Shown here: positions 1-50,186 of the stretch, piece after piece
Position numbering within the stretch: position 1 is the stretch's first letter
Layout: every line of letters begins with the position of its first letter
IMG/VR virus record: IMGVR_UViG_3300031974_002723
Location: 1 to 62,858 of that record
From: a virus
Lineage: Duplodnaviria > Caudoviricetes
Direction: 5' to 3' (one strand)
DNA: 62,858 nucleotides
The notes under the pieces: model-generated
What the model saw: only the letters and a program-made list of their open reading frames with translations
What the model was told of the DNA's origin: nothing
Database searches by the model: none
Translations under genes and position numbers: made by a program

Positions 1-81
1 GTGAGTGTTTAAATGTTTGTACCCCCAAGAGGAATCGAACCTCTATCTGCGGTTTAGGAAACCGATGCTCTATCCGTTGAG
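1..81. repeat. Direct terminal repeat, copy 1 (circular assembly overlap)
   Basis: Bases 1-81 are identical to 62778-62858. Confidence 0.97.
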
Positions 82-91
82 CTATGGGGGT
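20..91 (-). tRNA. tRNA-Arg(CCU)
   Basis: Reverse complement ACCCCCA TAGCTCAACGGATAGAGC A TCGGT TTCCTAA ACCG... GGTTCGATTCC... TGGGGGT A; anticodon CCT; CCA not encoded. Confidence 0.93.
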
Positions 92-1039: not shown

Positions 1040-1071
1040 CAAAGTTACAACGATTGTTTCTTATTTCCAAA
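1040..1071 (-). promoter_or_regulatory. Bacteroidota sigma-A-type early promoter
   Basis: Minus strand TTTG-20 nt-TAACTTTG matches the -33/-7 consensus. Confidence 0.85.
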
Positions 1072-2065: not shown

Positions 2066-2097
2066 CAAAGTTAAGGCAAATGTTCCTATCTACCAAA
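2066..2097 (-). promoter_or_regulatory. Bacteroidota sigma-A-type early promoter
   Basis: TTTG-20 nt-TAACTTTG, followed by TCCAC as in the 1040 promoter. Confidence 0.85.
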
Positions 2098-8337: not shown

Positions 8338-8799
8338 ATGCGTTTGTCCAAAAACCTGACCCTACAAGAGTGTACAAAAAGCCTGACGGCAAAGCGACTT
8401 GGTTTAGAAAATCAGCCTGACGACCCTCAGATCACAAACCTAAAGCTTGTAGCAGAGCATGTCTTTCAACCTCTCAGAGATCACTTTGGAGTCCCGATCT
8501 ACGTCTCATCAGGATACAGGTCGCCGAAACTCAATTCTTCAATCGGTGGGAGTGCTACTTCTCAGCATTGCCAAGGCCGCGCTTTGGACCTGGATGCTGA
8601 TGTCTTCGGTGGGGTAAGCAATGCAGAGATTTTCCACTATATCAAAGACTGCTTGGATTTCGATCAGCTCATATGGGAGTTTGGTGATGACACCAATCCC
8701 TCATGGGTTCATGTCAGTTACAACTCCCCCACTGAGAACAGAGGGAGAGTCATGCGGGCTGCCAAGGATGGCGTCGGAACATATTACAAACTCTGGTAA
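8338..8799 (+). CDS. Peptidase M15A family endolysin
   Basis: SGYRS, SQH..G.ALD and WVHVS zinc-peptidase motifs. Confidence 0.88.
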   Translation: MRLSKNLTLQECTKSLTAKRLGLENQPDDPQITNLKLVAEHVFQPLRDHFGVPIYVSSGYRSPKLNSSIGGSATSQHCQGRALDLDADVFGGVSNAEIFHYIKDCLDFDQLIWEFGDDTNPSWVHVSYNSPTENRGRVMRAAKDGVGTYYKLW

Positions 8800-9200
8800 A
8801 AGCGCTGGACGAGGAGCCTAGCCCTTTGCGTAAGCGCGTACCTAACTCTATAGTTGTACTTGGTCTCTTCTCTGAAGAGGTGATCATCGAGCGATTGTGA
8901 CGGCGTTAGCCTTTCGAAGTGCTTGTACAGGAGTTCCTCTGACTGCAAGGGGTATATGATCCTGTTCGCCATGTTGCTGCGGTTATACTGATACTGTTCA
9001 GCGGCATGGTCTATGGTAAAGAATTCTAGGTCGTAAGCCCACAGGAGGAACTCCAAGTGCTTCCAGTCAATATCATGGTGCTCGCAGAAGTCCTTCCTAA
9101 CAGAATGTAGATTCTTGAGGTAATTGTTGTTGATGTACTTCTCTTTCAGTTTAGAGAAGTCCCTGAACATGCGCTTCTTGGACACTTTTGACTTAGGCAT
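8784..9200 (-). CDS. Putative winged-helix DNA-binding protein
   Basis: 138 aa; LEFLLW...YALTQRAR wing-like ending; lone antisense gene in the late arm. Confidence 0.55.
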   Translation of the reverse strand: MPKSKVSKKRMFRDFSKLKEKYINNNYLKNLHSVRKDFCEHHDIDWKHLEFLLWAYDLEFFTIDHAAEQYQYNRSNMANRIIYPLQSEELLYKHFERLTPSQSLDDHLFREETKYNYRVRYALTQRARLLVQRFYQSL

Positions 9201-9219
9201 GATTACTTATCTTTGATCT

Positions 9220-9525: not shown

Positions 9526-9761
9526 TGGATGGATTGATTAGAAAACTTGTGATCGGCAAAGACCCGAAAAACGGGATGGCATACTTTGTCGGGATGAAGG
9601 CTGGGCGAGGCCACGTCTCTGCCATTATACAGGACGAGTCCTACTTGCACAAGTTTGGTAAGTGCCGATACCTGGTATATATAGAAGGGCCAGAAGGAAC
9701 TGAGCTCTGGAAGGCGGTTGACGACATGCCGTGCCTACTTGAATTTGATCTAGACTTTTAA
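9525..9761 (+). CDS. Hypothetical protein (IRKLVIGKDPK..MAYFVG)
   Basis: 78 aa, TGATG coupling, directly upstream of the GroES-like gene. Confidence 0.75.
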   Translation: MDGLIRKLVIGKDPKNGMAYFVGMKAGRGHVSAIIQDESYLHKFGKCRYLVYIEGPEGTELWKAVDDMPCLLEFDLDF

Positions 9762-9765
9762 TACA

Positions 9766-10341
9766 ATGAAGACGCTCGACAAGTTTATCGTACAAATCGA
9801 AAAAGAACTACAAGACACCATAACCACAGACTCTGGACTAGAGCTCTACATAGACACCAAATACAATGAGTTTGAACACCGAACTACAGAAGGCGAAATC
9901 CTGGCTTATCCGCTCAAGTATGACACTGGTGCGGAAGCTGGAGATACTCTTTACTTCCATCATCACGTGGTTATCAATGGCGGTTCGCCACTGGTCAAGG
10001 AAGACAATCATTACATTGTCCAGTATGATGACGTCCATGCAGCTGCGAATCAAGCAATTGCGTACAAAAATCAGGACGGCATACACCCAATCAAGGGTTG
10101 GTGTCTGCTTGAGCCTGTTGAGGAAGATGACCCTGGACATTCTGGACTCGTTGAAGTGGTCACTCTCAAAGAGAAAGAAGTAACCCAAGGTGTGGTATCC
10201 TTTGACACATCAGAGCTTGAAGAGCTCGGAGTATCCCATGGGGACGTGGTTGGCTTCAAAAAGAACAGAGACTACAGGATTAAAATTGATGGCAAGGAAT
10301 ACTACAGGGTCGCGGTCACGGAGCTCCTCTACAAGCTTTGA
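9766..10341 (+). CDS. GroES-like co-chaperonin with two GroES-like halves
   Basis: TDSGLEL mobile-loop-like segment; GDTLYF and GDVVGF...IDGKEYY patterns. Confidence 0.7.
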   Translation: MKTLDKFIVQIEKELQDTITTDSGLELYIDTKYNEFEHRTTEGEILAYPLKYDTGAEAGDTLYFHHHVVINGGSPLVKEDNHYIVQYDDVHAAANQAIAYKNQDGIHPIKGWCLLEPVEEDDPGHSGLVEVVTLKEKEVTQGVVSFDTSELEELGVSHGDVVGFKKNRDYRIKIDGKEYYRVAVTELLYKL

Positions 10342-10612
10342 TACCCTTAAAGCCGCAGAAAAGCTGATGCAGGCTATGGCCATTGCCATTGACAATATGA
10401 TCGAAGAGGTGAAGAAGCCTGTCGATCAGGACATCAATGGTAGCGCCAGGAAAGCCGAACTTCAGTCAGTAAAACAAACCGCCATAGATTGCAAGGAGCT
10501 GCTTCGTGAGAGGCAATCCTTGGAGCAGATGGTTAAAGAACTTAGAGAAAATGGAGAAGTCCAAGAAGACAAAGACTACTCAGGCGGATTCGCAGAGAAG
10601 TTCAGCAAGTGA
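10289..10612 (+). CDS. Helical protein, possible terminase small subunit
   Basis: Coiled-coil ORF upstream of terL; ATG at 10289 is in frame; function inferred from position. Confidence 0.45.
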   Translation: MARNTTGSRSRSSSTSFDTLKAAEKLMQAMAIAIDNMIEEVKKPVDQDINGSARKAELQSVKQTAIDCKELLRERQSLEQMVKELRENGEVQEDKDYSGGFAEKFSK

Positions 10613-10692
10613 TCATACCTTGAGGACGGGGGATTTTGATTGGCAGCGTCATGAAACCATGCTGAATAAGAGAATGAATATTATCGGCAGCA

Positions 10693-11988
10693 ATGGAAAT
10701 GACGGGTATCACTACTGGGAGGACAGTTGGAACGAAGAGTAAAGGAGTTCTACTTGCTCTTTATATTGGTCTTTCTCTTGGCTCTGCGGCTCAGTGTGAC
10801 CTTGAGCTTGTAGGTGTAGACCTTATCGAAGGGACGGTAACGGTATCGTTCAACAACACTGAGAACTGTGGTGGCACAGGCGGACCCGACGGAATTTCTG
10901 AGATCCAGTTCGGGTTTCAGGCTTTAGACGAGAACTGCAACGCCATGAATGTCGGGTGGGACTTCCCGTCTGGCGTTTCTATTCCTGACGACTCGAATCA
11001 TCCTGGATGGGTGTACTCTGCTACTACTACGGAGACACCTAGCAACTGGACAAACCTGTATGGCGATGATATTGATCCCCCGTATTATACTGGTGAGGTT
11101 ATAGACTTCCCTATCTACAATGTGTACCAATCTTCATCTGGAGGTTTGTGGTACCAGATGGAGGATATCCTTGGATATTGGATTGACGAGGGGTATAGCA
11201 TACAAGTTGTTATTTGGCAGATCAGCTATGGCCCCACCATGTATGCTGAAGACGGTGGGTGGGCTGAGGTAGGACCCAACGGAGACGGGAGCAGCTGGGG
11301 GAGCGGGGTCTATGACGACGAGAACTTCCTTGACAACTGGGTTGTGATTGGTCCTTGTGGGGAGTGTGTCCCAGAGGTTGTAACGGATACGGTTTACGTA
11401 GACCTCCCTGCAGATACAGTAACCGTCTTTGAATCAGATACGATCATTCAGTATGATACCACATACACTTACATAACGGACACGTTGTACCTCGTCGATG
11501 TGGACACTTCATATATCACTTTAATCGACACCGTCTATCTTACTGATTATCAAACTGATACCGTCATTGTCGTTGACATAGACACTTCATATATTAGTTT
11601 AACTGACACCATATACGTTACTGAGTATCAAATAGATACAACGAGTGTATATGAATATGACATGGTTGAAGTTGACTGCAGTACAGGTCAGCCATGTGTC
11701 AGTCCGTTCTCTGATTGCTCTATATACATACCGAACTCTTTTACCCCTAACAACGATGGGGTGAACGATGTATGGGGAGCCGAGACGGACTCTTTTTGTT
11801 GGGCGAGCTGGAGAATGAAGGTGTTCTCAAGGACTGGCGAACTGGTATGGGAGAGTTACGATCCAGATGATATTTGGCTTGGTGGAGACGAGTACTATGT
11901 CCCTAACGACATGTATATTTACAGAGTGGAATGTGAGGGATACGGGGAGTCATACATCATAAACGGTCACGTGACCATTATCAGATAA
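10693..11988 (+). CDS. Secreted protein with gliding-motility-associated (type B T9SS) C-terminal domain
   Basis: Signal peptide ending SAA/Q; DT-repeat stalk; IYIPNSFTPNNDGVND..VFSRTGELVW..W.G..YIY..GHVTIIR. Confidence 0.85.
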   Translation: MEMTGITTGRTVGTKSKGVLLALYIGLSLGSAAQCDLELVGVDLIEGTVTVSFNNTENCGGTGGPDGISEIQFGFQALDENCNAMNVGWDFPSGVSIPDDSNHPGWVYSATTTETPSNWTNLYGDDIDPPYYTGEVIDFPIYNVYQSSSGGLWYQMEDILGYWIDEGYSIQVVIWQISYGPTMYAEDGGWAEVGPNGDGSSWGSGVYDDENFLDNWVVIGPCGECVPEVVTDTVYVDLPADTVTVFESDTIIQYDTTYTYITDTLYLVDVDTSYITLIDTVYLTDYQTDTVIVVDIDTSYISLTDTIYVTEYQIDTTSVYEYDMVEVDCSTGQPCVSPFSDCSIYIPNSFTPNNDGVNDVWGAETDSFCWASWRMKVFSRTGELVWESYDPDDIWLGGDEYYVPNDMYIYRVECEGYGESYIINGHVTIIR

Positions 11989-12203
11989 TGAAAAGAGACT
12001 ATGACAAAGAGTACAGGAAGTACGGTAAGAGTGAGAAAGCTAAGAAGTACAGAGCTGCCCTCAATAAGTATAACCGTAAGAAAGGGACGTATGGTAACGG
12101 TGACGGGCTGGACGCCGCTCACGAGAGTGGGGTGATCAGAAGGTTTGTCAAAGCCTCCGTAAACAGAGCAAACAACAGGCCCAAGAAAAGGGCGAGTAAA
12201 TAA
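11988..12203 (+). CDS. Small HNH-like basic protein
   Basis: RDYDKEY...DGLDAAH...NRANN. Confidence 0.6.
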   Translation: MKRDYDKEYRKYGKSEKAKKYRAALNKYNRKKGTYGNGDGLDAAHESGVIRRFVKASVNRANNRPKKRASK

Positions 12204-12247
12204 ATTTTCGACGAGACGGCCCCCTACGCAAATGGGGTTGATCAAAC

Positions 12248-12321
12248 TGGGGCGTAGTTCAGTTGGTTAGAGCGTCTGTCTTATACACAGAAGGTCGAGG
12301 GTTCGAACCCCTCCGCCCCAA
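12248..12321 (+). tRNA. tRNA-Ile(UAU)
   Basis: TGGGGCG/CGCCCCA acceptor stem; TCTGT-CTTATAC-ACAGA anticodon arm; GGTTCGAACCC T-arm. Confidence 0.9.
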
Positions 12322-12333
12322 CAATTCAATACA

Positions 12334-12465
12334 ATGGCAAAACAAAACAGCACTTACAGCGAAAAGAAGAAGGTCAGCAGGCCTGGCGTGCATGCCAAAA
12401 CCAAATCGTCGAAAAACAAGACTTCCCAAAACTACAGGAAGGCTTACAGGGGACAGGGGAGGTAA
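12334..12465 (+). CDS. Small basic protein ending YRGQGR
   Basis: 43-aa ORF translated by hand between the two tRNAs. Confidence 0.7.
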   Translation: MAKQNSTYSEKKKVSRPGVHAKTKSSKNKTSQNYRKAYRGQGR

Positions 12466-12480
12466 TTTTCCCTTACCTTT

Positions 12481-12554
12481 GCTCCTGTAGCTCAGCTGGA
12501 TAGAGCATCTGCCTTCTAAGCAGACGGTCCCAGGTTCGAATCCTGGCAGGGGTA
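12481..12554 (+). tRNA. tRNA-Arg(UCU)
   Basis: GCTCCTG/CAGGGGT acceptor stem; TCTGC-CTTCTAA-GCAGA anticodon arm; GGTTCGAATCC. Confidence 0.93.
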
Positions 12555-12568
12555 CAATTGAATTCATC

Positions 12569-12751
12569 ATGAGTAAGTACAAGTGCGAGTGCGGCAAAAC
12601 CGCAGAACATACTGGAAGCGTATCCATCAAGGTGATCAACGGAGAAGTTCGTCACGATGTGAAGTGTGAATGCGGGAAGTACATGGAACTGGCCGAGAAG
12701 AAGGTCGGCGTCCCCTCATTCAAAAGCAATCGGTATGGACAGGTCCGATGA
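12569..12751 (+). CDS. Small zinc-ribbon protein
   Basis: Two CECG motifs. Confidence 0.7.
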   Translation: MSKYKCECGKTAEHTGSVSIKVINGEVRHDVKCECGKYMELAEKKVGVPSFKSNRYGQVR

Positions 12752-14846
12752 GATTATTCGGTTGGACAGCGCAGGTGAGCCTGGTGAGGTTATTTCGATC
12801 CACGGTCTTGACATTGCTCTTCCGAAAGTTCCAAAGAAGTCAGACATCCTCTTCCACGACCTCCCAAAGAAGTTGCAGATGTGGAAGCGCACCGATGTGC
12901 CACAGGAACTGTCGCGGGTTAGAAGTATGGATGAGTGGTTCGAGAAGCCTGCCGAGTTTCGACGCGCCTTTTCTCCTTACATCGAGCAGGAGTTTGAGCG
13001 CAGGCGCAACGGTGTTTGGTTTTACAACAATGGTGTGCCTACGTACATTACGGGAAGGCACTACATGTTTCTCCAATGGAGCAAAATCGATATCGGATAT
13101 CCTTCGTATCTTGCCTTCCAGCGTGAGATCTTTCTTCACATGGCTGCGTGCGAGGCTGATCCCCGTTGTATCGGTCAGCTATATACTAAGTGTCGCCGTT
13201 CTGGCTATACTAATATCTGTGCCGCTGTACTTGTTGACGAAGCTACGCAAGTAAAAGACAAGCTCCTTGGTATCCAGTCCAAGACTGGTAAAGACTCCCA
13301 GGAGAACATATTCATGAAGAAAGTGGTACCGATGTTCAAGTCGTACCCATTCTTCTTTAAACCTATTCAGGATGGCACGACGAACCCACGTATGGAACTC
13401 GCTTTTCGGGAACCATCAAAACGAATCACGAAGAAGAACAAGACGTCGCAGAAGGGCGATGCTCTCAACACAATCATCAACTGGAAGAACACCACAAACA
13501 ACGCCTACGACGGAGAAAAGCTCCATATGCTCTACCTCGACGAGGCTGGGAAGTGGGAGAAGCCAGTTGACATCAGAGAAGCCTGGCGAATTGAGCGGAC
13601 TTGTCTCATCGTTGGTAAGAAAATAATTGGTAAGGCCCTGGTGGGGTCTACCGTAAACCCAATGGATAAAGGTGGGGAAGAGTACAAAGCGCTTTGGGAA
13701 GATTCAGACCCTGCTGAACGCAATGCCAACGGAAGGACCAGGAGCGGTCTTTACCGTATTTTTATACCTGCTGATCACGCTCTTGAAGGGTTTTTTGATC
13801 GCTACGGCAACCCTGTTGTGGATGATCCTGATGCTCCGATAGAGGGTGTTGATGGCGAACCAGTCGATCAGGGCAGCAACACTTACCTCAAGAACGAGCG
13901 GGACAGCCTCAAGCATGACCCGTCAGAACTGAACGAGATTATTAGGCAGTTCCCGTTGACTGAAGATGAGGCGTTCAGGGATAGTATCGAGGGGAGTCTA
14001 TTCAACATCGGTAAGATCTACCAGCAGATAGACTGGAACAACAATCTCTACCCAAACCCAATTGTAAGAGGCAACTTCATTTGGAAGGAGAAAGACAAAG
14101 AGGTCATCTTCTCTCCAGACCCTAGGGGTAGGTTCAGGGTAGCATGGCAGCCACCAGCAGAAATGCGGAACAAGATTCATGAGGTTAGGGGCAAGAAGGT
14201 ACCACCTTATTCACAATTCGGTGTTGGTGGAGTAGACTCCTATGACTTGGACCAAACAGTGGATGGCAGAGGATCTAAAGGAGCTATGCACCTGTTCAAT
14301 AAGTTCAACATGAACGACAAGGTCCCTAGCAACATGTTTGTGTTGGAGTATGCCTCTAGGCCAGACTTAGCAAGCATATTCTACGAGGACGTACTGATGG
14401 CTGCGTTCTATTATGGTTACCCGCTTTTGATCGAGAACAATAAGTACGGTATCGTAAGGTATTTTGAATCAAGGGGTTACGACGGATATGTGATGGACAG
14501 GCCTGATCACTTGAAGACAGGTAATTCTAAAGTGAGTGTCAGAACGAAGGGCATCCCGTCGAACTCTCAAGACGTGATCCAGGCTCACGCTCATGCTATT
14601 GAGGCCTATATCCACAACCACGTAGGGATAAAGCCAGAAACAGACGACTTCGGGAATATGTATTTTAATGATACGCTAGAAGACTGGATCGGGTATAAAA
14701 TCACCAATAGAACCAAATACGACCTTACGATTAGCTCTGGTCTGGCACTGCTTGGGGCTCAGAAGGTTAAGGACAATAGGCCGAAGTCTAACCTATCCGA
14801 AAAGACCTTTTTCAGGAAGTCTAAGATAAAAGAGTGGCATCGCTAA
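12735..14846 (+). CDS. terL: Terminase large subunit
   Basis: KCRRSGYT Walker A-like, LYLDEAGKW Walker B, GSTVN, GVDSYD nuclease motif; directly before the portal. Confidence 0.9.
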   Translation: MDRSDEIIRLDSAGEPGEVISIHGLDIALPKVPKKSDILFHDLPKKLQMWKRTDVPQELSRVRSMDEWFEKPAEFRRAFSPYIEQEFERRRNGVWFYNNGVPTYITGRHYMFLQWSKIDIGYPSYLAFQREIFLHMAACEADPRCIGQLYTKCRRSGYTNICAAVLVDEATQVKDKLLGIQSKTGKDSQENIFMKKVVPMFKSYPFFFKPIQDGTTNPRMELAFREPSKRITKKNKTSQKGDALNTIINWKNTTNNAYDGEKLHMLYLDEAGKWEKPVDIREAWRIERTCLIVGKKIIGKALVGSTVNPMDKGGEEYKALWEDSDPAERNANGRTRSGLYRIFIPADHALEGFFDRYGNPVVDDPDAPIEGVDGEPVDQGSNTYLKNERDSLKHDPSELNEIIRQFPLTEDEAFRDSIEGSLFNIGKIYQQIDWNNNLYPNPIVRGNFIWKEKDKEVIFSPDPRGRFRVAWQPPAEMRNKIHEVRGKKVPPYSQFGVGGVDSYDLDQTVDGRGSKGAMHLFNKFNMNDKVPSNMFVLEYASRPDLASIFYEDVLMAAFYYGYPLLIENNKYGIVRYFESRGYDGYVMDRPDHLKTGNSKVSVRTKGIPSNSQDVIQAHAHAIEAYIHNHVGIKPETDDFGNMYFNDTLEDWIGYKITNRTKYDLTISSGLALLGAQKVKDNRPKSNLSEKTFFRKSKIKEWHR

Positions 14847-14867: not shown

Positions 14868-17342
14868 ATGTACGGCAGCAAAGGAAATAAAAGCGTAAAC
14901 TTTCCTGACCCCTTGGCTCCCTCTGAAAAAAAGAAGGGGAAGGCCTATGGTCTTCAGTACGCCAAATCGATAGCTGCTCAGTGGGGCACTGTCGCTCAGG
15001 ACAACTCTCTGATGAAGAAGAGGAGGGTGGTTTTTGACAGGAACAGAAAGTACGCCAACGGAACCCAGGACACCTCGATATACAGGCAGCTTTTGACGAG
15101 CCTGGACCCGTCTAACGGGGACGGAAGCTTCCTGAACCTTGACTTCACTCCTGTCCCCATCCTCCCGAAGTTCGTGAGGATCGTGGTCAACAAGATTCTT
15201 TCTAGCGAACCATATCCGAACCTGGAGGCTGTGGATCCGCTCTCTTCTAGTGAGAAGGATCTGGAGAGAAAGAAAGTGGAGATGGCTGTAGCAAACAAGA
15301 AGAAGCTGCAGGCCATTCAAGAAAAGACAGGGGTGAACATCTCTGAGATGGATGAGATTCCTGACACTCTTGAGGAGGCAGAGATCTTCATCGGGAATAA
15401 CATCAAGTCTTCTTCTGAGATTGCCGCTCAGGTGGCGACCAACATGACCCTGAAGTGGAACGACTTCAGTGATTCTACTTACAGGAGGTGCGTCAATGAC
15501 CTTACCACCTGTGGTATGGCTGTCACCAAGCGCAGCAACGACCCCAACCAAGGGATTAAGGTTGAGTACGTCGATCCAGCGGAGTTCATACACAGCTACA
15601 CCAACGACCCCAACTTCGGGGACATTGTGTATGCTGGTCACGTGAAAATGATTCCGATCCACGAACTCAAGAGGATCGCTGGTGATCAGTTCACAGAAGA
15701 CGAATACAAGGAGATCGCTCAAGCCGCAGCAAAGAAGTATGGATATGATACCTCCAGGTTTGGTCAGTCCAGGTACGACGACTATCTGAAGAGACACAAG
15801 TTTGGGTATGACGAGTATATGGTTGAGGTTCTGGACTTTGAGTTCATTTCCATAGACCCGATATACTTTGAGGAGAAGGAGAGCAAGTACGGCAACGTAG
15901 GGTTCTATAAGAAAGGCGAGAACTACAAGGCTCCGTCCAACTCTGTTTACAAGAGGTCTGTTAGCAGGCTGGATAACTCCACTGTGTACGGCGGCACGTA
16001 CATCATGGGGTGCGACAAGATCTTCAACTACGGCCTGAAGACGAACATCCCGAAGAACATGCACGACCTGACCAGGGCGAACATGTCTTACTCCGTGGTG
16101 GCAACCAACATGGAGGACATGATCCCTAAGTCCATGGTGGATAGCTGCATTGGATTCGCGGACCAGCTTCAGCTTACACACCTGAAGATCCAGCAGGCAA
16201 TCGCAAAAGCAAAACCCGATGGCATCATCATTGATATCGAGGGTTTGGAGAATGTTCAGCTCGGAAAAGGAGGTGAACTCCAGCCGCTCGAACTGCACGA
16301 CATCTATGAGCAAACTGGCGTCTTCTACTACAGGAGTAAGAACCCTGAAGGCGGCTTCCAGAACCCTCCCATCAGGGAGATCAATAACAGTGTACGGAAC
16401 ATCAACGAGTTCATCGCGCTGTACAACCACTACCTGAGAATGATTCGTGATGCTACGGGCATCAACGAGGCTATGGACGGGACCACTCCGAAGGGCGAGC
16501 AGCTTGTTGGGGTTCGTCAGCAAGCCATTGCTGCAGGAAACAACGCTATCTACGACATCACGAACTCCTCCATGGTTTTGTTCAAAAAGGTGTGCTCAGA
16601 CATTGTCAAGTGCCTGCAGATCATCCCAAGGAACAGCATCCTGTTCAGGGCTTATGAAACCGCCATTGGAAAGGAGAACATGAGGATGATCAACACCTTC
16701 TCTAATCTGTCTATGTACAACTTCGGGGTCACCGTAGTTAAAGAGATGGAGGAGGTTGAAAAGCAGTATCTGGAACAAAACATCCAGGTGTCATTGGCTC
16801 AGAAAGAGCTCGACATCGAAGACGCCATCGCGATCAGGCAACTCAAGGACATCAACCAAGCTGAGAGACTGCTTGTGGTTAGGCGCAAGAAGCGCATGGC
16901 CGCAAACCAGCAGATAGCTCAGCAGAATGTTCAAATGCAAGCTCAGGCCCAGGCTCAGTCTGCACAGGCTGCAAGCCAGGCTAAGATGCAAGAGATGCAG
17001 ATGAAGGCTCAGATCGATTCGCAGATGGAGCAGATGAAGGCCCAACTGGAGGCCCAGATGGAGTCTCTCAAGCATGAGCACAGAAAGGAGATCGAAATGA
17101 TCAAGGCTCAGGCTACGCTTGGATTCAAGGAGGACGAGAAGAACTTCAGGGAAAAGCTCGAAGTCTTGAAAGAAGACAGAAAGGACGACAGAGTGAAGAA
17201 GCAGGCCACTGAGCAGAGCAAGCTCATTTCACAGAGGCAAGGCGAGCGCGGCGAACTTGCTGAGCAAGAGGAGGTTACCGAGGATACCGCACCGCAGGAC
17301 ATTATAAATCAGATCATACAAAATGGCACAAGTCAATCTTGA
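14868..17342 (+). CDS. Portal protein
   Basis: 824 aa after terL; DFTPVPILPKFV motif; Gln/Met-rich C-terminal coiled-coil barrel. Confidence 0.85.
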   Translation: MYGSKGNKSVNFPDPLAPSEKKKGKAYGLQYAKSIAAQWGTVAQDNSLMKKRRVVFDRNRKYANGTQDTSIYRQLLTSLDPSNGDGSFLNLDFTPVPILPKFVRIVVNKILSSEPYPNLEAVDPLSSSEKDLERKKVEMAVANKKKLQAIQEKTGVNISEMDEIPDTLEEAEIFIGNNIKSSSEIAAQVATNMTLKWNDFSDSTYRRCVNDLTTCGMAVTKRSNDPNQGIKVEYVDPAEFIHSYTNDPNFGDIVYAGHVKMIPIHELKRIAGDQFTEDEYKEIAQAAAKKYGYDTSRFGQSRYDDYLKRHKFGYDEYMVEVLDFEFISIDPIYFEEKESKYGNVGFYKKGENYKAPSNSVYKRSVSRLDNSTVYGGTYIMGCDKIFNYGLKTNIPKNMHDLTRANMSYSVVATNMEDMIPKSMVDSCIGFADQLQLTHLKIQQAIAKAKPDGIIIDIEGLENVQLGKGGELQPLELHDIYEQTGVFYYRSKNPEGGFQNPPIREINNSVRNINEFIALYNHYLRMIRDATGINEAMDGTTPKGEQLVGVRQQAIAAGNNAIYDITNSSMVLFKKVCSDIVKCLQIIPRNSILFRAYETAIGKENMRMINTFSNLSMYNFGVTVVKEMEEVEKQYLEQNIQVSLAQKELDIEDAIAIRQLKDINQAERLLVVRRKKRMAANQQIAQQNVQMQAQAQAQSAQAASQAKMQEMQMKAQIDSQMEQMKAQLEAQMESLKHEHRKEIEMIKAQATLGFKEDEKNFREKLEVLKEDRKDDRVKKQATEQSKLISQRQGERGELAEQEEVTEDTAPQDIINQIIQNGTSQS

Positions 17343-38410: not shown

Positions 38411-41400
38411 ATGGAAGAAGATTACAATCAGGTAATAGAAAGACTTAGGTCTCGCGGAAAGACTGACGACTTCATTGTAAATACCCTGGTTTATGACCCT
38501 AGGTATGGGGTTGATCGAGCCAGAGCGAAAGTTTTGGTTGGAGTTTTCGATAAAAAAAAAGACTCGCAAGAAATCACTGGCATTTCGGCTTCACAGCCTT
38601 CGGGTATCGCTTTGGACTCTTCTTTGGAAGAGGGCCAGAAAGTTGAGGCTGCATATGCCAATCCTAGCATAGACGAAACCAAGCTCGACCCTGCGCTCAG
38701 CCAGTGGCGTAGCTACCACCTCGCGACGGGCATGACTCCTGGAGACAGGGATGTCAACATGTACGACGAGGAAGACATGAGGATGTCATACGTTACTGAC
38801 GCTGTAGACTGGTCGATAAGTAACGGTAAGTTTGAAGAAGGGATTACCAGAGAAGATATCCTTGGAAACAACAAGGACAAGAAGTTCGACCCTGAGAAAG
38901 CCACTATTGCTAAGGAGGCGTTTGACGATTTCTGGTCTAACGTTCCTGATGAGGTAAAAGAATATCAGGCAGACGAAGAACAGATTAAGCAGAGAGTTGC
39001 GGCGTCTAGATCCCTCTCTATTATCAAGGAGTACTCAAAGAGGATGGAGCAAGACTTTAAGTCTGCTCACAACGAGCTTATGGCCTCTAACAAGGAGTAC
39101 AAGGATAAGGTAGAGCACTTTCAGAAAAGGGCAGCGAAAGGAGAGATCTCTGAGATAGACGCTACCAAGGAGATAAACAGGTACTTCAACATATACTCCT
39201 CGGATTTCTTCAAGGACAGGCTCGATGCATATAGAGACGAGATCATAAGCTCTCTACCTGAGGAGATGGCCAACGACAATGACTTCCTTGAGGATCTGTC
39301 TGAGGACATTTACGACAGGACCAACGGTCAGATGAAGCTGAACCTGGACAGGGATGGGGTATACAACGAAGATACTTGGGGTATCACGTCCATGTTCTAC
39401 GGCATGGCCGCAAATACGATGGATCTGTTGGCTGGACCTTTGTCATACGTGGGTAGTTCAAACGCTCCGTTCTTTGGGTACGATAGTATGGAGGACATGG
39501 GCCTTGATATCTACGGAACATTTAAAGAAGCGAGCAACAAGCTCAGAGGAGAGCAGAGAGAATACTCTGACCTGTTCGAAGATGATTGGAGGGGGTGGAA
39601 TGTGTTCAACAAGCTGGGACATCTTGGATTGGAACTTGTTGATTCTGGCGGAGAGATGGTCCCGTACCTTTTTGCAGGTAGCCTTCCTGGCGCATTGTTC
39701 TTGACGGGAACAATGAACACGTACATTGACAGCAAGTACCAAGACAGAGACAAAATAGAGAGGGGATTTGCCCCTGTTTTTGGATACAATGAAGTAGGCG
39801 GAGAGGCTGCAAGGCTAATAATGTCTCTTTCTGTTGGTGCTGTACAAGAGTACTCTAAAGGCATATTGCAAAGGGTTGGCGGTAGATTTTTAGGCAAAGG
39901 AACTGCCGCTGCATCTGATAGGTACATCTCTAAACTTCTCGGCGGAACTGCTGGGGAAGTGACCAAGGGACGTGCTTTCTCGGCGTACCTTCTTGGTCAA
40001 GGAGTTGACGCTCTCAAAGAAGGTGGACAGGAAGTCATTGAGAACGCGATACAGAGAGCGGCTGAGGTGGGGCTTGGAAACAGCGATCTCACCATGTCTG
40101 AGTTCTTGGCTGAATCACAGATGTCCTTTGTTGAGGGTGTTAAAGGAACCGTAGGTATTGCTGGTGGCGGTGCTGTACTGAATAGAAAAGGTGCCCTTCA
40201 GTCTGGTGAGAGGATTCTCGGTATTGACTCAAGCATTCTGACTGGACCTGCGGCAGCTACAAATTCCATCGCAGACCCTAGTTCAGTAGACGCTGAGGAA
40301 GGATCTGACGCTCCAGTCCTGTCGAACATTGACAGAGAAACTTACGGGAAGACCCCTGAGGAGATTAGGAAACACAAGCTGAAAAACGAGGAGAGATACA
40401 GAGTCATCAAGCTTCGTCACCCGCAGTCTTTTGAGAGTATTCAGAAGATGGACGAAAGGCTGATGGTTCTTGCCCATACAGCAGAAGCGATATACGCAAA
40501 GGCAGAAGACAGAAATGTACTCGACCCGAAAGAAGTGGAGAGACTGGAGGCTGCTCAAAGGGAGTTCAAGTCTCTCATTGAGGCACGCCACAGGCTGTTT
40601 ACTTCATTTGATAATGAGCCTACTGCCCTTACTGAAGCTGAAGCCATTGCCGTTGAGAGGGCTCATGTCGCAAAAGCGATGAATGAGATGGACCTCGACA
40701 TCAGGCAGACAAGGGAGGAGATGCAGAAGATGAAGGAAGAGGAAGGAACCCTCTTCTATGATGCCGATGCATACGCAGAAGCAGAAAACAGACTCGAAAG
40801 TCTGAAGAGACGTCAGGCCACTGCAAGGAAACTCATCGGGGAACTGGAGGTCGCCCACAAAGCGGACGCTGAGGCCAGAGCCCAAAGCAACATCAAGACA
40901 AAAGATGGTAGGGACCCTATAGCTGAGAGGACTTCTGACGCTGTTCTTTCTGCTCAGAACTCCCTTCTTGATTTCATGGGGATCAAGAATCAAGAGTTCG
41001 ACCCTGAAGCTCCTGCTCAAACCTCTTCTACGTGGTCGGCTGAAACCCAATCTAAAAATCACTACGAAGACGAAGCGAGCAAGGGTAGTACTTACACTTT
41101 GGACGGGGTCAACCAAGCTGGAAAGCCCAAGGCAAGCGTCAGCATATTTAATGAGAGGAGCGAGGTTGTCGATGGTGAGATGACCCAAGAGGAGATGACT
41201 CAGAAGCTCCAAGAGTTCTACGAGAATAACAAGGATATTCTGGAGGGCAACGAAGACATCTTGGCGATCGGCACCTTCTACGACGCTGAAAGCGGAAAGA
41301 CCTATATCGACATCTCTTCTGTTCTGGATAAGGACATTGCAGCTAGACTCGGAAAAGAGTACAATCAGATCTCAGTGTGGGATTTGGAGCTGATGAAAGA

Positions 41401-44400
41401 GATCAAGACTGGCGGTGACGGGACGGTTAAAGGCAAGATGAAGCCTGAAGCCGACAGGATTGCTGACATCAGGAATATCTTGGAGGAAGAGACCCAGCGT
41501 CAAAAAGAATCTCAAGTCGAGGCCGAAGGCGCTGAAGCTACGAACCAGGCCGTCGACACGGAGTCTGCTCGCGCTGATCGTGGAATCAGGGGTCAGTACA
41601 AGGACTACGGCGCCAATAAAGATGGAAGTGTTGGGGTCGTGGCAGAAGGCCCGTTGACCAGGCAGATGGCAAAATGGATTAACTCCAGGCTGCCTAGAAC
41701 CATTAAGAATATCCTTGGGGAGGGCAAGAAACTGACCATTAGGGTTCACAATACGGCTGAGTCTGGACACTTCTCGAATGGTAAGGGAGATGGCGAGATC
41801 AACGGATACTACGTTGAAGTAAACGGAAAGGACATCACGATTCACGTCAACCCTGAGTACATATCAAAGAAGATGGACAAGACTGGCAAGACTCTGGAGG
41901 CGGTTATGCTTGAGGAGTTGCAGCACGTGATGATCGGGCCTGTCCTCAATAAGATATACTTGGAGAACCCAGCCTTGGCTCAAAAAATGCTGGCCGAGAT
42001 GTTCGAGCTTGCTAAGCTCCATCCTGACGGAAAGCTTGTGGAGCAGATCAAGCAGAAGGAAAAGGATTACAAGGCATACTACAAGGGTTTTGATAAAGAC
42101 GGGAAGCCGCTCGATAAGGACTTGACGGATGAGCAAAGGGCTATTGTTTTTGAAGAAATGGTCCTTGAACTCACTTCTGAGCTTGGTTTGGTTTGGGATG
42201 GAGTCAACCCAGAGCAGAAGAAGTCTTTCTTCGACAAGCTCAGGGTCTGGTTCAACAAAGTGTTCCAGGCGGCTGGAGCTAACGAGTTTGTAATCAAGGA
42301 TGTAACCAGCGTAGAGCAGCTCGTTGAAGCCATGGCTGCTATTCATAGCAGAGGTGCAGGGGTATCACTTGACGCGAGAGTAAAGAACAGACTCAACAAC
42401 AACGAGCGCGGTGCGTACTCAAAGGCCAGACCCGTGAGGGTTCAGTCTCTTCCAGACGAAGGTTCATTTACGGTAAGGTTTATGATGCCGAGATACGGCA
42501 GGGGCTCAACCGAGATGTCTGGAGTGTACACAGAATCTGTTCTTGCTTCTATGGATTTCAACGGGAAGTGGCACTTCGTAAACTGGTGGAAGACGGCTAC
42601 TAGGATGGGCCAAGACCGCCACGGAGGATGGGAGATAAAAATGGAGGGTGAAACGGAGTTCAAGCCGCTTGATGCAGATGCAATGAAGCGGTGGAAGATG
42701 AGCCCTCCGAGGCGCAAAATGACTTACACCGAGCAAGTAGCACAAGAGTCTCGAAGAAAGCAAGAAGAAGCCTCTTCCATCAGGGAGCTCCAGGATGAGT
42801 TTGCGGAAGGAAAGGACACCTACGAAAAGCAAAAGCATAGAGACAGGGCCATTCTGAAGGCCGCCGAGGAGGTGTTTGGCGAAGAAGAAGTCCAGAACAG
42901 AATGGAAGAGAGCAACAGGGGTGGCAAGTATTTCTCTACTACCAAGTACACCTCTGAAGAGCTGACTCAGATCCGATTGAAGCTGGAGGAGAACTACGGG
43001 TTGAGAAAGCCTGAAGATGGAGACGATGTGATGGTTGAGCGTGCGAGCGGAAGCTTTTACGTGAACGATATGAGGAGGCGCCAGAATCAAACCAATCAAG
43101 AAAGGTTGGATGAGATGGAAGAGGCGGCCAAGAGAATTGTGTGTGGAGGAGTAGCCTTTAACTGTCCCATTGGTAATGAAGCGTTGGCAAGGCTGGACAT
43201 GATGAGGATTGTGTCTGAGTCATTGTATGGCAAGGATCCGACGCCAGAAAACATGGCTCAGGGACTCGCTACTCTTGCTGAATGGTCTCACTTGAAGCGA
43301 CTGGAAAGAACTGGAAGAGACATCAGAACTATCGACGAGGAAATCAAGTCTGTCTTCGATCAGGTCTCGGACTTTGTTGAGGAGATTCACCCGCCGTCCA
43401 TGCTTCCTGCTAATCACAGGGATCACTTTGGCGTGTTCGTCGCAATCTTGGCCGCTACGTCTAACGGGGTGTACTCACCCAACAACGTTCGTGTAGCGAT
43501 TCTGATTTACGACAAGTACCTCTCTGGAATTGCAGGGGGAAGGCTTCCTTCTAAGGCTCTCGACGGTGAGTACATAAAGAAGATTAGAGAGGCAAACCCA
43601 GATGTTCTGGTCGACAAGGATGACATAAATAAGCAGAGGGCTGGAAGCATAGCCAACGCGCTTCAAGGGATACTGGCAGACGCAGACGATTACTACGACC
43701 CTAAGACTGGAAGGTTTGACTCCGAGAAAATGGCTAAGCGCTACGGAACAAAGAGACGTGGAAAGCCTGGGCCAGGAGGTAGAAGCATACTTGGAATCGA
43801 CGCAGAGAAGACTGGGGAGCACGCTGCAGGTATGATGGGGTATGGTAAGCACGCACACCTCGCAAATGAAAAACACAACAGGAGGGTTCACCATGCACTC
43901 CAAGGGAAACTGGCCCTCCCTGTTGAAGACCTGGTGATATCACAAGATGCGATAAAGGCAGCCGAGTCTCTTGCGGAGCTTCATGAAGTGACCGATGCAG
44001 AGATAAACGCACAGCTTAAAAAATTCAACAAAGCAGAAGGTGGCCCCCTTACCGAGTCGGATCACGGATGGAATGATCCAGCTGTTCGTGCTATTGCCGC
44101 AATGTATGCCATAAGGAATCGCAAGCCAGGGACAAAGATTTATAGGGATGCATCTTCTATGTTGCACACCCTTCTCAAGAGGTCCAGTGCTTATGACGGA
44201 GGTAGCTCACGGCTTGATGTGGATGAAACCAAAACTAGGCTAGTGCAAGAAAAGGCCGCCAATGAGCTGAACAAAAGATTCCATAATGACGGTGTCGATG
44301 CGGAGTTTACTGCATACCATGTCCAGCAGCTGATGTTCGAAACCATGACGGCTGAGATGGCCGCATATAAAGAGGGTGAACTGAAAGACTACTCATACGC

Positions 44401-47400
44401 GGCTGTACTGGACGAGGCTATCCAAAGCATGAGGGACGGCAATGAAGGGCTTGATGCTGATATGGGGGCAAGTGAGATGGTGACCGCTCTAGACAACATG
44501 GGGAATATCACCAGAGAGCGTGCTCAGATGTCCTTTGACTTCCCGTCAACTGGAAGGGTTGACAATGAGGTTCTTGCCCACGACCATCCTCTGTACAGAA
44601 ACAGGGAGATGAAGGATGTCGGAATGGTCAAGCAAGGAGACAGCTTCGTTGTTATGTCTGACGCACTGGTTAGCGAGGCCCTCCAGTCTGACAAGAGGTC
44701 CATGCAGATCATGGATGAAAACAACCCTGTCGAGAAGGGACAGAAGGTTGCGATTAGGCTGAACCTGAACGTAAAGAAGAATACTGGCGTTCCTGTTCAA
44801 ACGGTTCACGACAAGACTGCCACTGGAAAGGCTCTCAGGTACTCTGGCGCAGTCACCTTGAGGAATGTCGAACTTGCTGTAAATCAAGACGCTAGAGAGA
44901 AGATTGTCACCTTCCAAGAGAACAAGTTCCCTATGGCCGCAGTGCAGGGTGAATACGTTTCTGAAGGAGTGGAGTCAAGTCAGCTTGACGGAGTGAAGGC
45001 TGTGTTCAATCCGTTCAGGGAGCACCTGTTCGTTGACGCTTCGGGCAGGGCCATTAAGTCTGCTGAAGAAGCGACCGTGATTGGTAACACTGTTGTCCTT
45101 CGTGGTAAGATCGAATACTTTAAGATGGATGACCCGATCCTTCAGAGGGGTAAGGTTGAAAGCGACAAGGGTAAGGCTAGGCGTATCCTTCGCGGAGATA
45201 AGTACGAGAAGCAACTCAAGAGGTTCCAGGCTTACGCAGAGGGCGCTCTGGGCATGACGTTCAATAACAGGGCTGAGCTCGAAGCCGCGTATGACAGCAT
45301 GCAGGTTGGTTCTAAGGTTGCATTGTCTGAGTCTGATGTGGCTGAAAACATGGAAGTCGCCAGAGAGCGGGCCAGTATCGGTGGATTCATCAAGCAAGGC
45401 AAGATGAGGCAGACGGCACGTAAGCAGGCTGGGTCCTTCTTGAGCACCACGAGGGAGGCCATCATCGCGAACCCTGAGAACTACATCGCGCCTCAGAGCA
45501 TCAAGAAGATCAAGTCTGAGCTTGAGGACATGACGGACCAAGAACTGGTTCAACACCTTACCGACGAATCTGTTGGTAGGTTGTCTGAGAGAAACGACGA
45601 CATCGGAGTTCTCGCTGGTGCCGAGATGATCAGGCGCGCCATTGCTAGAGGCGAAGTAGACAGAATCCCCGCCATTGTTGCGGAACTGGCTGCAATCGGA
45701 ACCACGGCAGGTAGAATCCTTCGTCACTTCAGGGAGCTCAAGGCCAGCACCCCAAAGGGTCTGGCATCGATCATCGAGTCTGCTGTAACCAATAACGGAA
45801 ACCAACTTTCTGACGCTCAAAAGGCTGAGCTCAAGCAGATTACAGAGCAACTCTTCGTGGAGCAGTCAAAGGTTGAAGACCTCACGAGAAGGGCTGTGGC
45901 AGGAGAGAAGGTGGATGCAGAGCTTGAGGCGGCCATAGACGCCATGAAGGACACTGAAAGAAAGCTGGATACGTTCACCACCAAGTACGTTGAGAAAGGA
46001 TGGGGTACGTTGTTCGGTCAGTTGGTTCAGGGTAACCTCCTCACCACCATTTCTCAGATGTTCAACATCGGGGCTAACATGGTGAACGCTGTCGGCTATG
46101 TGGCCGTTGACCTCGTGTCCCTCCCGTTCGAGGCCGCTATGATGAAGATCGGAAAGGCCATGGGTAAGAACATTGAGGATCGCCGCAAGGCCAGCCTCAT
46201 GGCTTATATGTACGGGTTCAGAAAGTTCGGAAGAGGATTTATTGAGGCGGCGGACCAAGTGATTACTGGTCAAGACAGGGAGCTTTCTGAGTGGAGAATG
46301 GCGAGAGGACTGGCACCGTTCAGGTCGTTGAAGGCGGCATTCGAAAAGGATCTGCCCCTTGGTCCTGACGGAAAAGGTAGTCTGTCTCAGAGGTCTAAGC
46401 TGTTTGTGCAGGGTACGTTCGGTATCCCCGCAGAGGTGATGTTCAGGCTCTTGTCTCTTGGTGACGTTCCGTTCAGGAGGTTCGCTGAGGGTGTTGATTT
46501 GTACCAGTCGGCCAAGTCCATGGGTCTGGAGGGCGAGGCGTTGCAACGCTACCTCAAGTACCCAAGCAAGAGAGACTTGCAGAGGGCGCAAAGAGAGGGC
46601 AGGAAGCTGACGTTCCAGGAAGAGACGGCGGCTAGTAAGAACGTAAACAACGTTCTCTCATCCCTTGAGGGTATCGTGGCAAGAGGTCTTGATTCAATCG
46701 GCATTAACGGACAGGAGTTCGCTAAGGCCCTGTTCAAGACCATGCTCCCGTACCGCTCCACCCCTGCAAACATTCTGTACGAGACGTTCACGTGGGTTAA
46801 CCCTTACGTGGGTACGATCAGGATGGCTACCCAGCTCAGGAATGGCGACGTTGAGGAGAGCTCCAAGACTCTCGCTAAGATGATGCTTGGTGCGGTCACC
46901 ATGGAGGCGGCCCTCATGCTTATCTCTGAAGGCGTCATCTCTGGCCCTGTCATGTGGGATGAAGATGAGGAGAAGAACATGGCGTATGACGTGTTCCCTC
47001 CGAGCAGCATCAACATCTCTGCGCTTCGCAGGTTGGTCAACGGAGAGGACCCAGCTCATCAGGCTGACGACTACTTCTTCAAGTACGATAAGCTTGGAAT
47101 GTTCGGGGCGATCATGTCCACCGCAGTCCAGAGTACTGACCCTGAGAAGCTCAAGCAGAGAGACTACAGCTCTCCGATTCAGTTTGCTTCGAACACAGTG
47201 TCCGACTTCTTCGGTGCGGGTTCGTTCTCTGCTATCTCCGCGATGATGGAGCAGAGCTTTGTGCAGGGATTGAACGGGTTCATCAAAGTCCTGATCGGAG
47301 ACAACGTCGAGCGGGACCTGGAGAACTTCCTGACCACGATGTTCAAGGCGGGCAGCGCAGCAGTTCTCCCGAACCAGCTTAACGCATTCTACAGGGCTGA

Positions 47401-49886: not shown

Positions 49887-50186
49887 ATGAAAGAAATACT
49901 AGAACAGATTGGGATCAACGTCGGTATCAGCGTGGCTGGACTATTTGGGTCCTTGCTCATGATCGGAAAGACGGCAACCACAAATCTCAAGACCACATTC
50001 TTTTCCCTCGTTTCTGGAGTGGCGTCTGCTAACTATATTACACCCATCGTACTGGATATCAGCGGTGTGGCCGATAAGTATCAGCTCTCTATCGGATTCA
50101 TTCTTGGCTTTCTTGGGCTGAAGGGGGTCGAGATCATAAGCAGCAGACTGCTGAATGAAGACGTAATCAAGAATAACAATGACTGA
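49887..50186 (+). CDS. Membrane protein (holin-like)
   Basis: Three hydrophobic helices; GFILGFLGLKGVE. Confidence 0.65.
   Translation: MKEILEQIGINVGISVAGLFGSLLMIGKTATTNLKTTFFSLVSGVASANYITPIVLDISGVADKYQLSIGFILGFLGLKGVEIISSRLLNEDVIKNNND

Follow-up and report, generated by a model that had tools for sequence, protein, structure and literature searches.

Gene architecture at the locus

The window analyzed here, that is, the whole stretch of DNA under study, is the complete IMG/VR virus record IMGVR_UViG_3300031974_002723, a phage genome of 62,858 bp with direct terminal repeats and an estimated completeness of 100%. The open reading frame (ORF) at 10693-11988 was the only real gene of this phage with a clear signal peptide, and encodes a protein of 431 amino acids (aa), termed P0001 herein. 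The features of P0001, including a stalk of Asp-Thr (DT) units and a C-terminal domain (CTD) of the type B class found in type IX secretion system (T9SS) cargo, were delimited using the reading frame, matches to hidden Markov models (HMMs) and an alignment of relatives.

10693..11988, + strand: whole gene, 431 aa (P0001), with a signal peptide followed by head, DT stalk and Cys cluster and ending in the type B T9SS CTD (open reading frame, HMM matches, alignment)
10693..10791, + strand: predicted Sec/SPI signal peptide, aa 1-33, cleavage SAA/Q, with Gln34 as the predicted mature N-terminus (sequence, family conservation)
10792..11376, + strand: head domain, aa 34-228 (alignment, composition, model)
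11377..11673, + strand: stalk, aa 229-327 (sequon counts, composition, model)
11674..11724, + strand: Cys cluster VDCSTGQPCVSPFSDC (C329, C335, C342), linking stalk to CTD (alignment)
11725..11985, + strand: type B T9SS CTD, aa 345-431, at the extreme C-terminus (TIGR04131, PF13585, structure matches)

A preliminary description of this DNA had listed the same succession of signal, Trp-rich head, DT stalk, Cys cluster and CTD, specifying a Sec signal ending SAA/Q, an acidic head of about 190 aa, and 11 DT units at 11386-11643, nine of them fitting an O-glycosylation motif. Each of these features was found at the positions given there, those of the DT units being exact, and the architecture read from them is supported by the sequence. 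P0001 appears to be a head-stalk-anchor protein, seemingly built for export, glycosylation and display on the infected cell.

Predicted export signal and type B C-terminal domain

By inspection, the N-terminus combines basic residues (R10, K15 and K17) with a hydrophobic core, VLLALYIGLSLG, followed by SAA/QC, and AlphaFold2 modeled a helix over residues 15-31 of this signal region. Among the 115 family proteins with at least 12 aa ahead of the motif, the +1 residue was Gln in every case, while the -1 residue was Ala in 77, Gly in 25 and Ser in 13. Gln at +1 is the rule (Q-rule) reported for Bacteroidetes signal peptidase I substrates (PMC5837995, PMC10653852), and phage proteins that obey it were noted earlier for phages of Porphyromonas gingivalis (PMC10367356). 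A lipoprotein reading of the "QC" was rejected, Gln at -1 being unfit for a lipobox and the Gln itself being invariant.

The type B assignment had been offered with the TIGR04131 HMM as its check. The CTD scored 37.0 bits against that model in the protein scan, narrowly above the cut-off of 35 (aa 345-431 of 431, profile positions 2-85 of 85), and 40.3 bits in a six-frame search of the record; the PF13585 (CHU_C) score was 43.9 bits against a cut-off of 27. The AlphaFold2 model of the CTD reached per-residue confidence (pLDDT) values of 81-94, and with it Foldseek returned 8glk_D (the NucA CTD in the translocon, E 2.3e-3, TM by target 0.57), PorZ 5m11, PorU 6za2 and RgpB 4ief, all of which are type A or related CTDs. 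The sole solved chain matched by the CTD sequence profile was 9flp_A, at the C-terminus of GhpA (E 6.7e-8, residues 5816-5884 of 5898), and the closest cellular CTDs came from metagenome-assembled genomes of Flavobacteriales, at up to 45% identity. No type A CTD was found in the record.

Type B CTDs are reported to hold five conserved motifs, A-E, that are needed for secretion (PMC12618676), and proteins with this domain to bind PorP-like proteins (PMC9143113). The record itself, as had been proposed, encodes no PorP/SprF partner (PF11751, 0 matches at E ≤ 1). One common host shuttle is described as serving three "orphan" type B substrates of Flavobacterium johnsoniae, which lack an adjacent carrier (PMC12618676), and because these orphans share a host shuttle, the missing phage carrier is no obstacle to export. 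Cys residues occur at positions 329, 335 and 342, forming the cluster, as well as at 369 and 414. C329 and C335 were invariant across 99 sequences, C342 and C369 across 28 sequences, and this conservation would fit an oxidizing compartment.

A stalk rich in predicted O-glycosylation sequons

The stalk holds 11 DT units (DTV, DTV, DTI, DTT, DTL, DTS, DTV, DTV, DTS, DTI and DTT) at aa 232-317, corresponding to nt 11386-11643. Nine of these match the sequon D-[ST]-[AILVMT], and all nine sites fall within aa 232-317. Sequon content was far beyond chance and conserved as a feature: in shuffles of the stalk composition the mean was 2.5 sequons and the maximum 8, with 0 of 5000 reaching 9, and shuffles of the whole mature protein averaged 2.6 and peaked at 9. 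The pattern held across the family, with a median of 10 sequons in the stalk (range 6-20), 1 in the head and 0 in the CTD (n = 113).

Stalks in these 113 proteins ranged from 85 to 324 residues and varied in length by entire DT units, which followed the consensus (Y/T/P)DT(V/I/T/L)Y(V/I)(T/Y/E)(L/E). DT-to-DT spacing was most often 8 (423 times), 9 (237 times) or 10 (164 times), 84% of spacings lying within 6-11, and the residue after DT was V, I, T, L, S or A in 1251 of 1263 units. The stalk of P0001 contains no Lys or Arg and has a net charge of -20; family-wide, stalk composition was T 18%, V 14%, Y 13%, D 12% and I 10%, with 0.1% Lys plus Arg and 0.7% Gly. Tandem Repeats Finder found no DNA-level repeat within it. 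In an AlphaFold2 model built from 99 sequences, residues 230-324 had pLDDT values of 28-36 and no secondary structure, while head and CTD were confident in the same model. Comparison of the stalk with proteins of 756-2155 aa gave no match at E ≤ 0.001, which for this tool is weak evidence.

According to a 2025 review of Bacteroidota general O-glycosylation, the motif D-S/T-A/L/V/I/M/T marks non-cytoplasmic proteins, its sites are near-fully occupied, engineered motifs are glycosylated, and glycosylation works across species (PMC12871550). Among bacterial type B CTD loci, ORFs found at the 79 closest had only 0-4 sequons in the 120 aa before the CTD, a region usually occupied by PKD-like domains, many of these ORFs being cut off by the 3-kb flank.

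The head domain

The head comprises 195 aa with 9 Trp and a net charge of -32. Its mature start, QCDL, was invariant in the family alignment, and the motifs NHPGW, WTN, DPPYY, VIWQISYGPTMYA, GGWAEVG and DNW were strongly conserved. Modeled by itself, the head formed a beta-sandwich with one helix (mean pLDDT 78, predicted TM score [pTM] 0.78). One loop, residues 148-172 of this 193-aa construct and about aa 181-205 of P0001, was ill-defined.

Structure searches for the head returned little. Foldseek found nothing in the PDB at E ≤ 0.001, the weak rows being immunoglobulin (Ig)-like and fibronectin type III (FN3) domains. Across 48,161 chains, VIA-align reached Z 5.9 at best and Z ≥ 5 in 25 chains, with no standout; FlaF, adhesin repeat domains, Ig-like domains of GH2 enzymes and an agarose-binding carbohydrate-binding module (CBM) tied at Z 5-6, scores that by the calibration of the tool indicate only a common arrangement. 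Scores in the ESM Atlas were below 0.8, with weak Ig-like rows and one useful row, a viral CHU_C cluster at TM 0.68. At the sequence level, PDB matches to the head profile were limited to a chitinase (E 0.026) and an agarase (E 0.15). There was no PHROG family, and Pfam, searched with 12 members up to E ≤ 10, gave nothing but DUF6404 in 2 of them (E 0.0072). The head is thus modeled as an Ig-like beta-sandwich without a specific match.

Distribution of the family

Using residues 30-345 as query, we recovered at least 190 protein clusters at E ≤ 0.001; among the 120 clusters listed, 119 had PF13585 and the exception was a 243-aa fragment. Family members were found only on viral or metagenomic contigs. 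In IMG/VR, 29 loci encoded full-length relatives at 47-62% identity (a 30th row was a fragment at 71%), and at least 183 viral stretches encoded type B CTD relatives. A head-only profile run against 1.84 billion representatives retrieved only 24 proteins at E ≤ 0.001, and CHU_C was present in 9 of the 10 hits of at least 400 aa that were scanned, the tenth being cut at its C-terminus. A viral structure library contained two relatives, one of which was annotated [quoted passage not shown]

Scans of public collections for this family were pattern-based, with a ceiling of 80 loci. That of GTDB (185,579 species, one genome each) produced 19 pattern matches and confirmed no cellular relative of the head, a scan in which distant relatives could be missed. 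The head was found in 0 of 50,697 phage records, where only CTD-level matches occurred, in 2 uncultured huge phages.

Several longer members (P0122, P0125, P0133, P0138, P0140 and P0142) had Cys-rich GCTDPxAxNYDPxAxxDDGSC modules and CARDB-like domains between head and stalk, inserts for which Pfam gave no family at E ≤ 0.01, and P0125 had two heads.

A variable slot and mosaic evolution

The P0001 gene lies in an accessory island at window 10613-12665, between a conserved small gene and the terminase, in the following surroundings.

8338-8799, + strand: M15 endolysin (PHROGs)
9187..9215, + strand: candidate match to the Bacteroidetes-type promoter consensus, just ahead of the + strand gene run that holds the P0001 gene (consensus)
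10190..10612, + strand: conserved gene that bounds the variable slot on its left, upstream side; its start is uncertain and it has no family (relatives)
11988..12203, + strand: 71-aa gene, phrog_6437, downstream of the P0001 gene here and upstream of its counterpart in the closest relatives (PHROGs)
12666..14846, + strand: terminase large subunit, bounding the variable slot on the right (PHROGs, relatives)
14868-17342: portal (PHROGs)

We surveyed the slot with a motif detector in the best 80 of at least 599 terminase relatives (76-88% identity), 63 of which had enough upstream DNA. A type B CTD ORF occupied the slot in only 2 of the 63, and slot size ranged from 204 bp to about 4 kb. TIGR04131 had no match in any of 5 near-complete relatives, compared with exactly one each in 5 of 5 carriers that served as positive control. 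In one seawater metagenome, a related strain joined 10613 directly to 12487, the cassette being replaced or absent. The P0001 gene is an optional accessory cassette, or "moron."

Elsewhere the slot was filled by a range of other genes. GT1, GT2 and GT4 glycosyltransferases were found in six loci (L194, L211, L212, L234, L246 and L201), and in L201 the T9SS cargo gene was itself followed by three glycosyltransferase genes. One slot (L195) held a DegT aminotransferase and a formyltransferase, and four (L192, L193, L196 and L199) a 129-aa predicted lipoprotein with an LGAC lipobox, identified by eye. Such glycosyltransferase, sugar and lipoprotein genes are of the kinds usually seen among surface modification or exclusion genes. 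Further occupants were MazG, endonuclease VII and HNH-like genes. Slot contents were examined in L192-L199, L201, L211-L214, L234, L246 and L258, some of which were empty (about 200 bp).

Variation extended to the protein itself. A divergent type of head in the slot (L063 type) was homologous by hhalign (probability 96%, E 1e-9), and another from a different context (L068 type) reached 76%; one slot variant (L035) had no head and kept stalk and CTD. P0001 was 47-62% identical to its relatives, compared with 72-90% for the terminase. Among relatives with terminase identity of at least 84%, two groups were distinguished, one with 59% head and 83% CTD identity and one with 64-69% head and 38-41% CTD identity, and more distant phages (terminase 72-75%) had head identity of up to 73% and CTD identity of up to 74%. 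Head and CTD identity were uncorrelated (Spearman -0.21, p 0.14; 50 rows, 11 of them the same contig fetched twice), and both head subtypes were found with both main CTD classes. Eight of the 29 IMG/VR loci had no close backbone match to the window, including three (L005, L006 and L029) whose portal was only 31% identical. These results show that head and anchor are shuffled independently between phages, and the independent swapping of CTD classes suggests, as far as sequences can tell, adaptation to differing host carriers.

A separate lineage encodes a shorter relative. At L057 (1527-3306), a 63-aa membrane ORF is followed by an M15 endolysin homolog, a 79-aa ORF and, directly after these, a 299-aa protein with signal, QCDMEL head, type B CTD and only 2 sequons; L056, L059-L061, L064, L091, L093 and L101 are similar, and these loci look like the end of a lysis cassette.

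Proposed route, purpose and alternatives

In the route that we propose, host Sec would export P0001 to the periplasm, where signal peptidase I would cut after SAA and the exposed Gln34, in keeping with the Bacteroidota Q-rule, would be cyclized by host glutaminyl cyclase. The head would fold as a disulfide-stabilized Ig-like beta-sandwich, and the extended stalk, free of basic residues, would offer nine D-T-(V/I/L/T) sequons to the general O-glycosylation system of the host in the periplasm, becoming a glycan-coated spacer. The type B CTD would then carry the protein through the host T9SS, and a PorP/SprF-like outer-membrane carrier of the host would retain it, the end product being a stalked glycoprotein on the surface of the infected cell. 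Judged from its sequence signals, this passage from Sec through O-glycosylation and T9SS to a host carrier is probable.

The purpose of such a protein may be to alter the infected-cell surface so that other phages adsorb more poorly, by masking of, or competition with, T9SS-delivered adhesins that serve as phage receptors; progeny could also be spared sticking to debris. In cultured Flavobacterium, mutations in T9SS and gliding genes are described as the main route to phage resistance, conferring broad resistance, and SprB and RemA, adhesins secreted by T9SS, are suspected phage receptors (PMC9804748). We favor masking or exclusion because the gene is optional, fast-evolving, modular and a slot-mate of lipoprotein and glycan cassettes, and because T9SS adhesins are suspected receptors. 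Sharing a slot with glycosyltransferase and lipoprotein cassettes, together with mosaicism, favors surface alteration or exclusion over other roles only by association. As a purpose, exclusion or masking is argued by association and is tentative, clearly more apt to be wrong than right; route and purpose taken together form the best explanation as a whole, and its chances of being correct are about even.

A bolder and doubtful extension would see these proteins as modular, fast-swapping surface "flags" of marine Flavobacteriales phages, that is, a T9SS-based system of superinfection exclusion or receptor masking with a variable Ig-like head, a sequon stalk and interchangeable CTD classes. Three Bacteroidota-specific pathways would be hijacked at once (Q-rule Sec, O-glycosylation, and T9SS with PorP/SprF on the gliding track), the CTD class being matched to the host carrier and the head to the receptor or competitor phage. 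If true, the flags would correspond, in Bacteroidota, to the exclusion systems that enterobacterial phages base on lipoproteins.

Several observations weigh against the proposal of an exported, glycosylated exclusion protein. The TIGR04131 margin was only 2 bits in the protein scan; the head lacks a specific structural match, so that a binding partner is not indicated; the exclusion role is drawn from genomic association alone; and the 299-aa relative of the L057 lineage, at the end of a holin/endolysin-like cluster, hints at another role. The low pLDDT of the stalk may reflect flexibility, or only poor alignment of repeats. Thr was used nearly exclusively in family stalks (DT 1221 versus DS 8), despite a slight Ser preference at the O-glycosylation motif in glycoproteomes (PMC12871550), and the stalk composition (T, V, Y, I, L) favors beta-strands; because of this near-exclusive Thr usage and beta-favoring composition, the DT units may be structural.

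The alternative that follows from the last point is that the DT repeats form a beta-rich spacer, possibly cation-binding via Asp, with the units not being glycosylation sites or being glycosylated incidentally. The regular period of 8-10 residues, the unit consensus and the T/V/Y/D/I-rich composition speak for such a repeat, as does the near absence of Ser. It is a less probable reading of the stalk, although one to be taken seriously: the AlphaFold2 stalk model contained no strands, the third position was nearly always a permitted residue, accessible motifs in exported proteins tend to be occupied (PMC12871550), and ORFs at the nearest bacterial loci had few sequons ahead of the CTD.

The same export route could instead serve an adhesin or lectin, with the displayed head binding polysaccharide, particles or neighboring cells, so that the infected cell stays near, or aggregates with, new hosts. 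Adhesins and carbohydrate-binding modules often have an Ig/FN3-like beta-sandwich fold, conserved aromatics are plentiful in the head, and a stalk lifting the head off the surface is typical for adhesins. The tied weak matches included adhesin repeats (8f9l_B, Z 5.8; 4mkm_A, Z 5.5) and an agarose-binding CBM (8wac_A, Z 5.3), alongside the weak chitinase and agarase sequence matches. None of these structural or sequence matches rose above background, however, no ligand site was identified, and the benefit would be less direct for a phage about to lyse its cell, so we regard an adhesive role as unlikely.

Interference with T9SS or gliding, in which P0001 would occupy host PorP/SprF-like carriers or the translocon and stop gliding or adhesin secretion, overlaps with receptor removal. 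Type B cargo requires specific carriers, and motif swaps are reported to fail to transfer specificity (PMC12618676); SprF is described as tied to the moving GldK track (PMC12635249). CTD classes were swapped between close phages (38-41% versus 83% CTD identity at terminase identity of at least 84%), as if matched to host carriers, and the headless L035 variant would be compatible with jamming, but was rare (1 of 71 loci examined). Interference alone would need neither a conserved, elaborate head nor a long stalk, yet both are maintained, making this quite improbable as the main effect.

More improbable still is an accessory role in lysis or release, exerted on the outer membrane or cell surface late in infection. 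L057 and 9 similar loci place the 299-aa relative behind the run of membrane ORF, endolysin homolog and 79-aa ORF described above, and the window endolysin (8338-8799) lies 1.9 kb upstream of the P0001 gene on the same strand. In the window lineage, however, five genes, one on the opposite strand, separate endolysin and P0001 gene, the gene is optional where an essential lysis function would not be, and type B cargo ends outside the outer membrane, for which reason a spanin-like role was rejected. Least of all do we expect P0001 to be a virion part whose CTD-like domain is a borrowed fiber-tip fold assembled into particles: the CTD fold is a generic beta-sandwich, but a cleavable signal with Gln at +1 was present in 115 of 115 relatives, no PHROG structural family matched at E ≤ 1, and the gene sits in an accessory slot outside the structural module, absent from most close relatives.

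Comparison with known systems

Display of a small glycoprotein through T9SS, as proposed for P0001, can be compared with several described systems. Like the type B substrates SprB (with SprF), PG1035 (with PorP) and the F. johnsoniae orphans served by Fjoh_1677, P0001 combines an N-terminal Sec signal with a terminal TIGR04131/PF13585 domain, and like the orphans, as they are reported, it has no adjacent carrier gene (PMC12618676). PorP-like anchorage would be expected for P0001 as for type B substrates (PMC9143113). Unlike cellular type B substrates it is phage-encoded, with no cellular head relative confirmed when 185,579 species genomes were scanned by pattern, and it is small (431 aa) relative to gliding adhesins. 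It also differs from the ORFs at the 79 nearest bacterial CTD loci, which had only 0-4 sequons, and usually PKD-like domains, in place of a sequon-rich stalk and the head motif in none (many of them, as above, cut by the 3-kb flank). The Aureispira grappling-hook protein GhpA (PDB 9flp) is likewise a surface appendage protein that ends in a tag of this kind; it is bacterial, has 5898 aa, and resembles P0001 nowhere but in the CTD.

The closest phage precedent is "Cryophage" (PMC7468147, Nat Commun 2020), reported to encode three type A CTD proteins for which the authors propose surface or superinfection roles. As here, these are phage proteins with a host T9SS sorting domain that vary between phage variants (PMC7468147). 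The Cryophage CTDs are described as type A, on recognizable enzymes or domains (endoglucanase, GH39, PA14; PMC7468147), whereas P0001 joins a type B CTD to a sequon stalk and to a head that fits no known family; a type B rather than a type A CTD implies a different carrier and anchoring mode. Cryophage was called a unique occurrence in that report (PMC7468147), in contrast to the at least 183 viral stretches with type B CTD relatives found here. We found no literature on phage type B CTD proteins, this head family or sequon-array stalks in open-access PMC and bioRxiv. Phage-encoded T9SS cargo with type A tags was thus already known (2020), and what is new is the type B tag class, the head family, the sequon stalk and the cassette behavior in an abundant marine phage group.

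With general O-glycoproteins of Bacteroidota, as reviewed, P0001 shares the motif (nine times) and a predicted non-cytoplasmic location (PMC12871550). Unlike known O-glycoproteins, family members have a tandem array of 6-20 sites in one stalk, nearly all at Thr; no described counterpart was found, and no systematic search for sequon arrays in bacterial proteins was made.

Llp of phage T5 and Cor are phage lipoproteins that act at the cell surface in superinfection exclusion or receptor masking. Their likeness to P0001 lies in the proposed principle only, namely a small, optional phage protein that takes a host pathway to the outer membrane and blocks a receptor, a parallel extended by the predicted lipoprotein that fills the same slot in sister phages. 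There is no sequence or fold relation, and P0001 is predicted to leave by T9SS instead of the lipoprotein pathway.

In the sea, much algal organic matter is degraded by Flavobacteriia, whose phages shape bloom turnover. Should the proposal hold, phages would use T9SS from within and not only as a target, and carrier specificity could be studied with P0001 as a natural small type B cargo, and O-glycosylation with its stalk as a naturally occurring tandem array of sites. Exclusion of other phages, if it occurs, would be relevant to competition among viruses in the ocean as well as to phage therapy of fish-pathogenic flavobacteria.

Phage, host and neighboring features

PHROG annotation of the record identified a GroES-like protein, several virion proteins, ribonucleotide reductase, primase/helicase and exonuclease in addition to the genes listed above. 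No integrase was seen among the 43 ORFs scanned, and a lytic phage is plausible. The terminase matched 106 phage records, all at < 60% identity, from phages of Flavobacterium (68), Cellulophaga (15), Tenacibaculum (2), Azobacteroides (2) and Maribacter (1), with the remainder labeled uncultured (14), "Bacteriophage" (3) or Caudoviricetes (1). A host in Bacteroidota is well supported and probably falls within Flavobacteriales. DNA of window 9700-13000 was held by 20 runs from 12 studies, and in 17 runs, mostly labeled seawater or marine metagenomes, it was near-identical (at least half of sampled words).

Promoters of the Bacteroidetes type follow the consensus TTTG-N17-21-TAnnTTTG. Three matches occurred in the record, at 1040-1071 (-), 2066-2097 (-) and 9187-9215 (+), versus 0.46 expected, and 2 of 100 shuffles reached 3; a sigma-70 type promoter scan is uninformative for Bacteroidota. 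In an oligo-dT RNA library from a sediment metagenome (X20), two 151-nt contigs were identical to 11196-11493 at depth 2. We did not count these as transcription because DNA can occur in such libraries and the material was too little.

Three tRNA genes were identified, Arg-CCT at 19-91 (-), Ile-TAT at 12248-12322 (+) and Arg-TCT at 12481-12555 (+), the latter two inside the variable slot beside the P0001 gene; the very high metagenome depth over Arg-TCT was drawn from other organisms. The GroES-like protein at 9766-10341 (+) has 191 aa and is conserved in relatives. Its Cpn10 match covers only residues 106-188, the N-terminal half having no Pfam family of its own, and the PHROG co-chaperonin family spans the full length. 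A 3222-aa ORF at 38411-48079 (+) had a Phage_L5_gp82 / phrog_586 domain at residues 2108-2229 as its sole family match. The left arm of the genome (1-6000) had a G+C content of 0.55-0.56, compared with 0.46-0.50 around the P0001 gene, a negative AT skew, and small ORFs on the minus strand, almost none with a family match. Finally, an 85-aa ORF at 49941-50198 (-), between two + strand genes, starts with MRFISVIVILDYVFIQQSAA, a signal- or anchor-like N-terminus, and could encode a small membrane protein.

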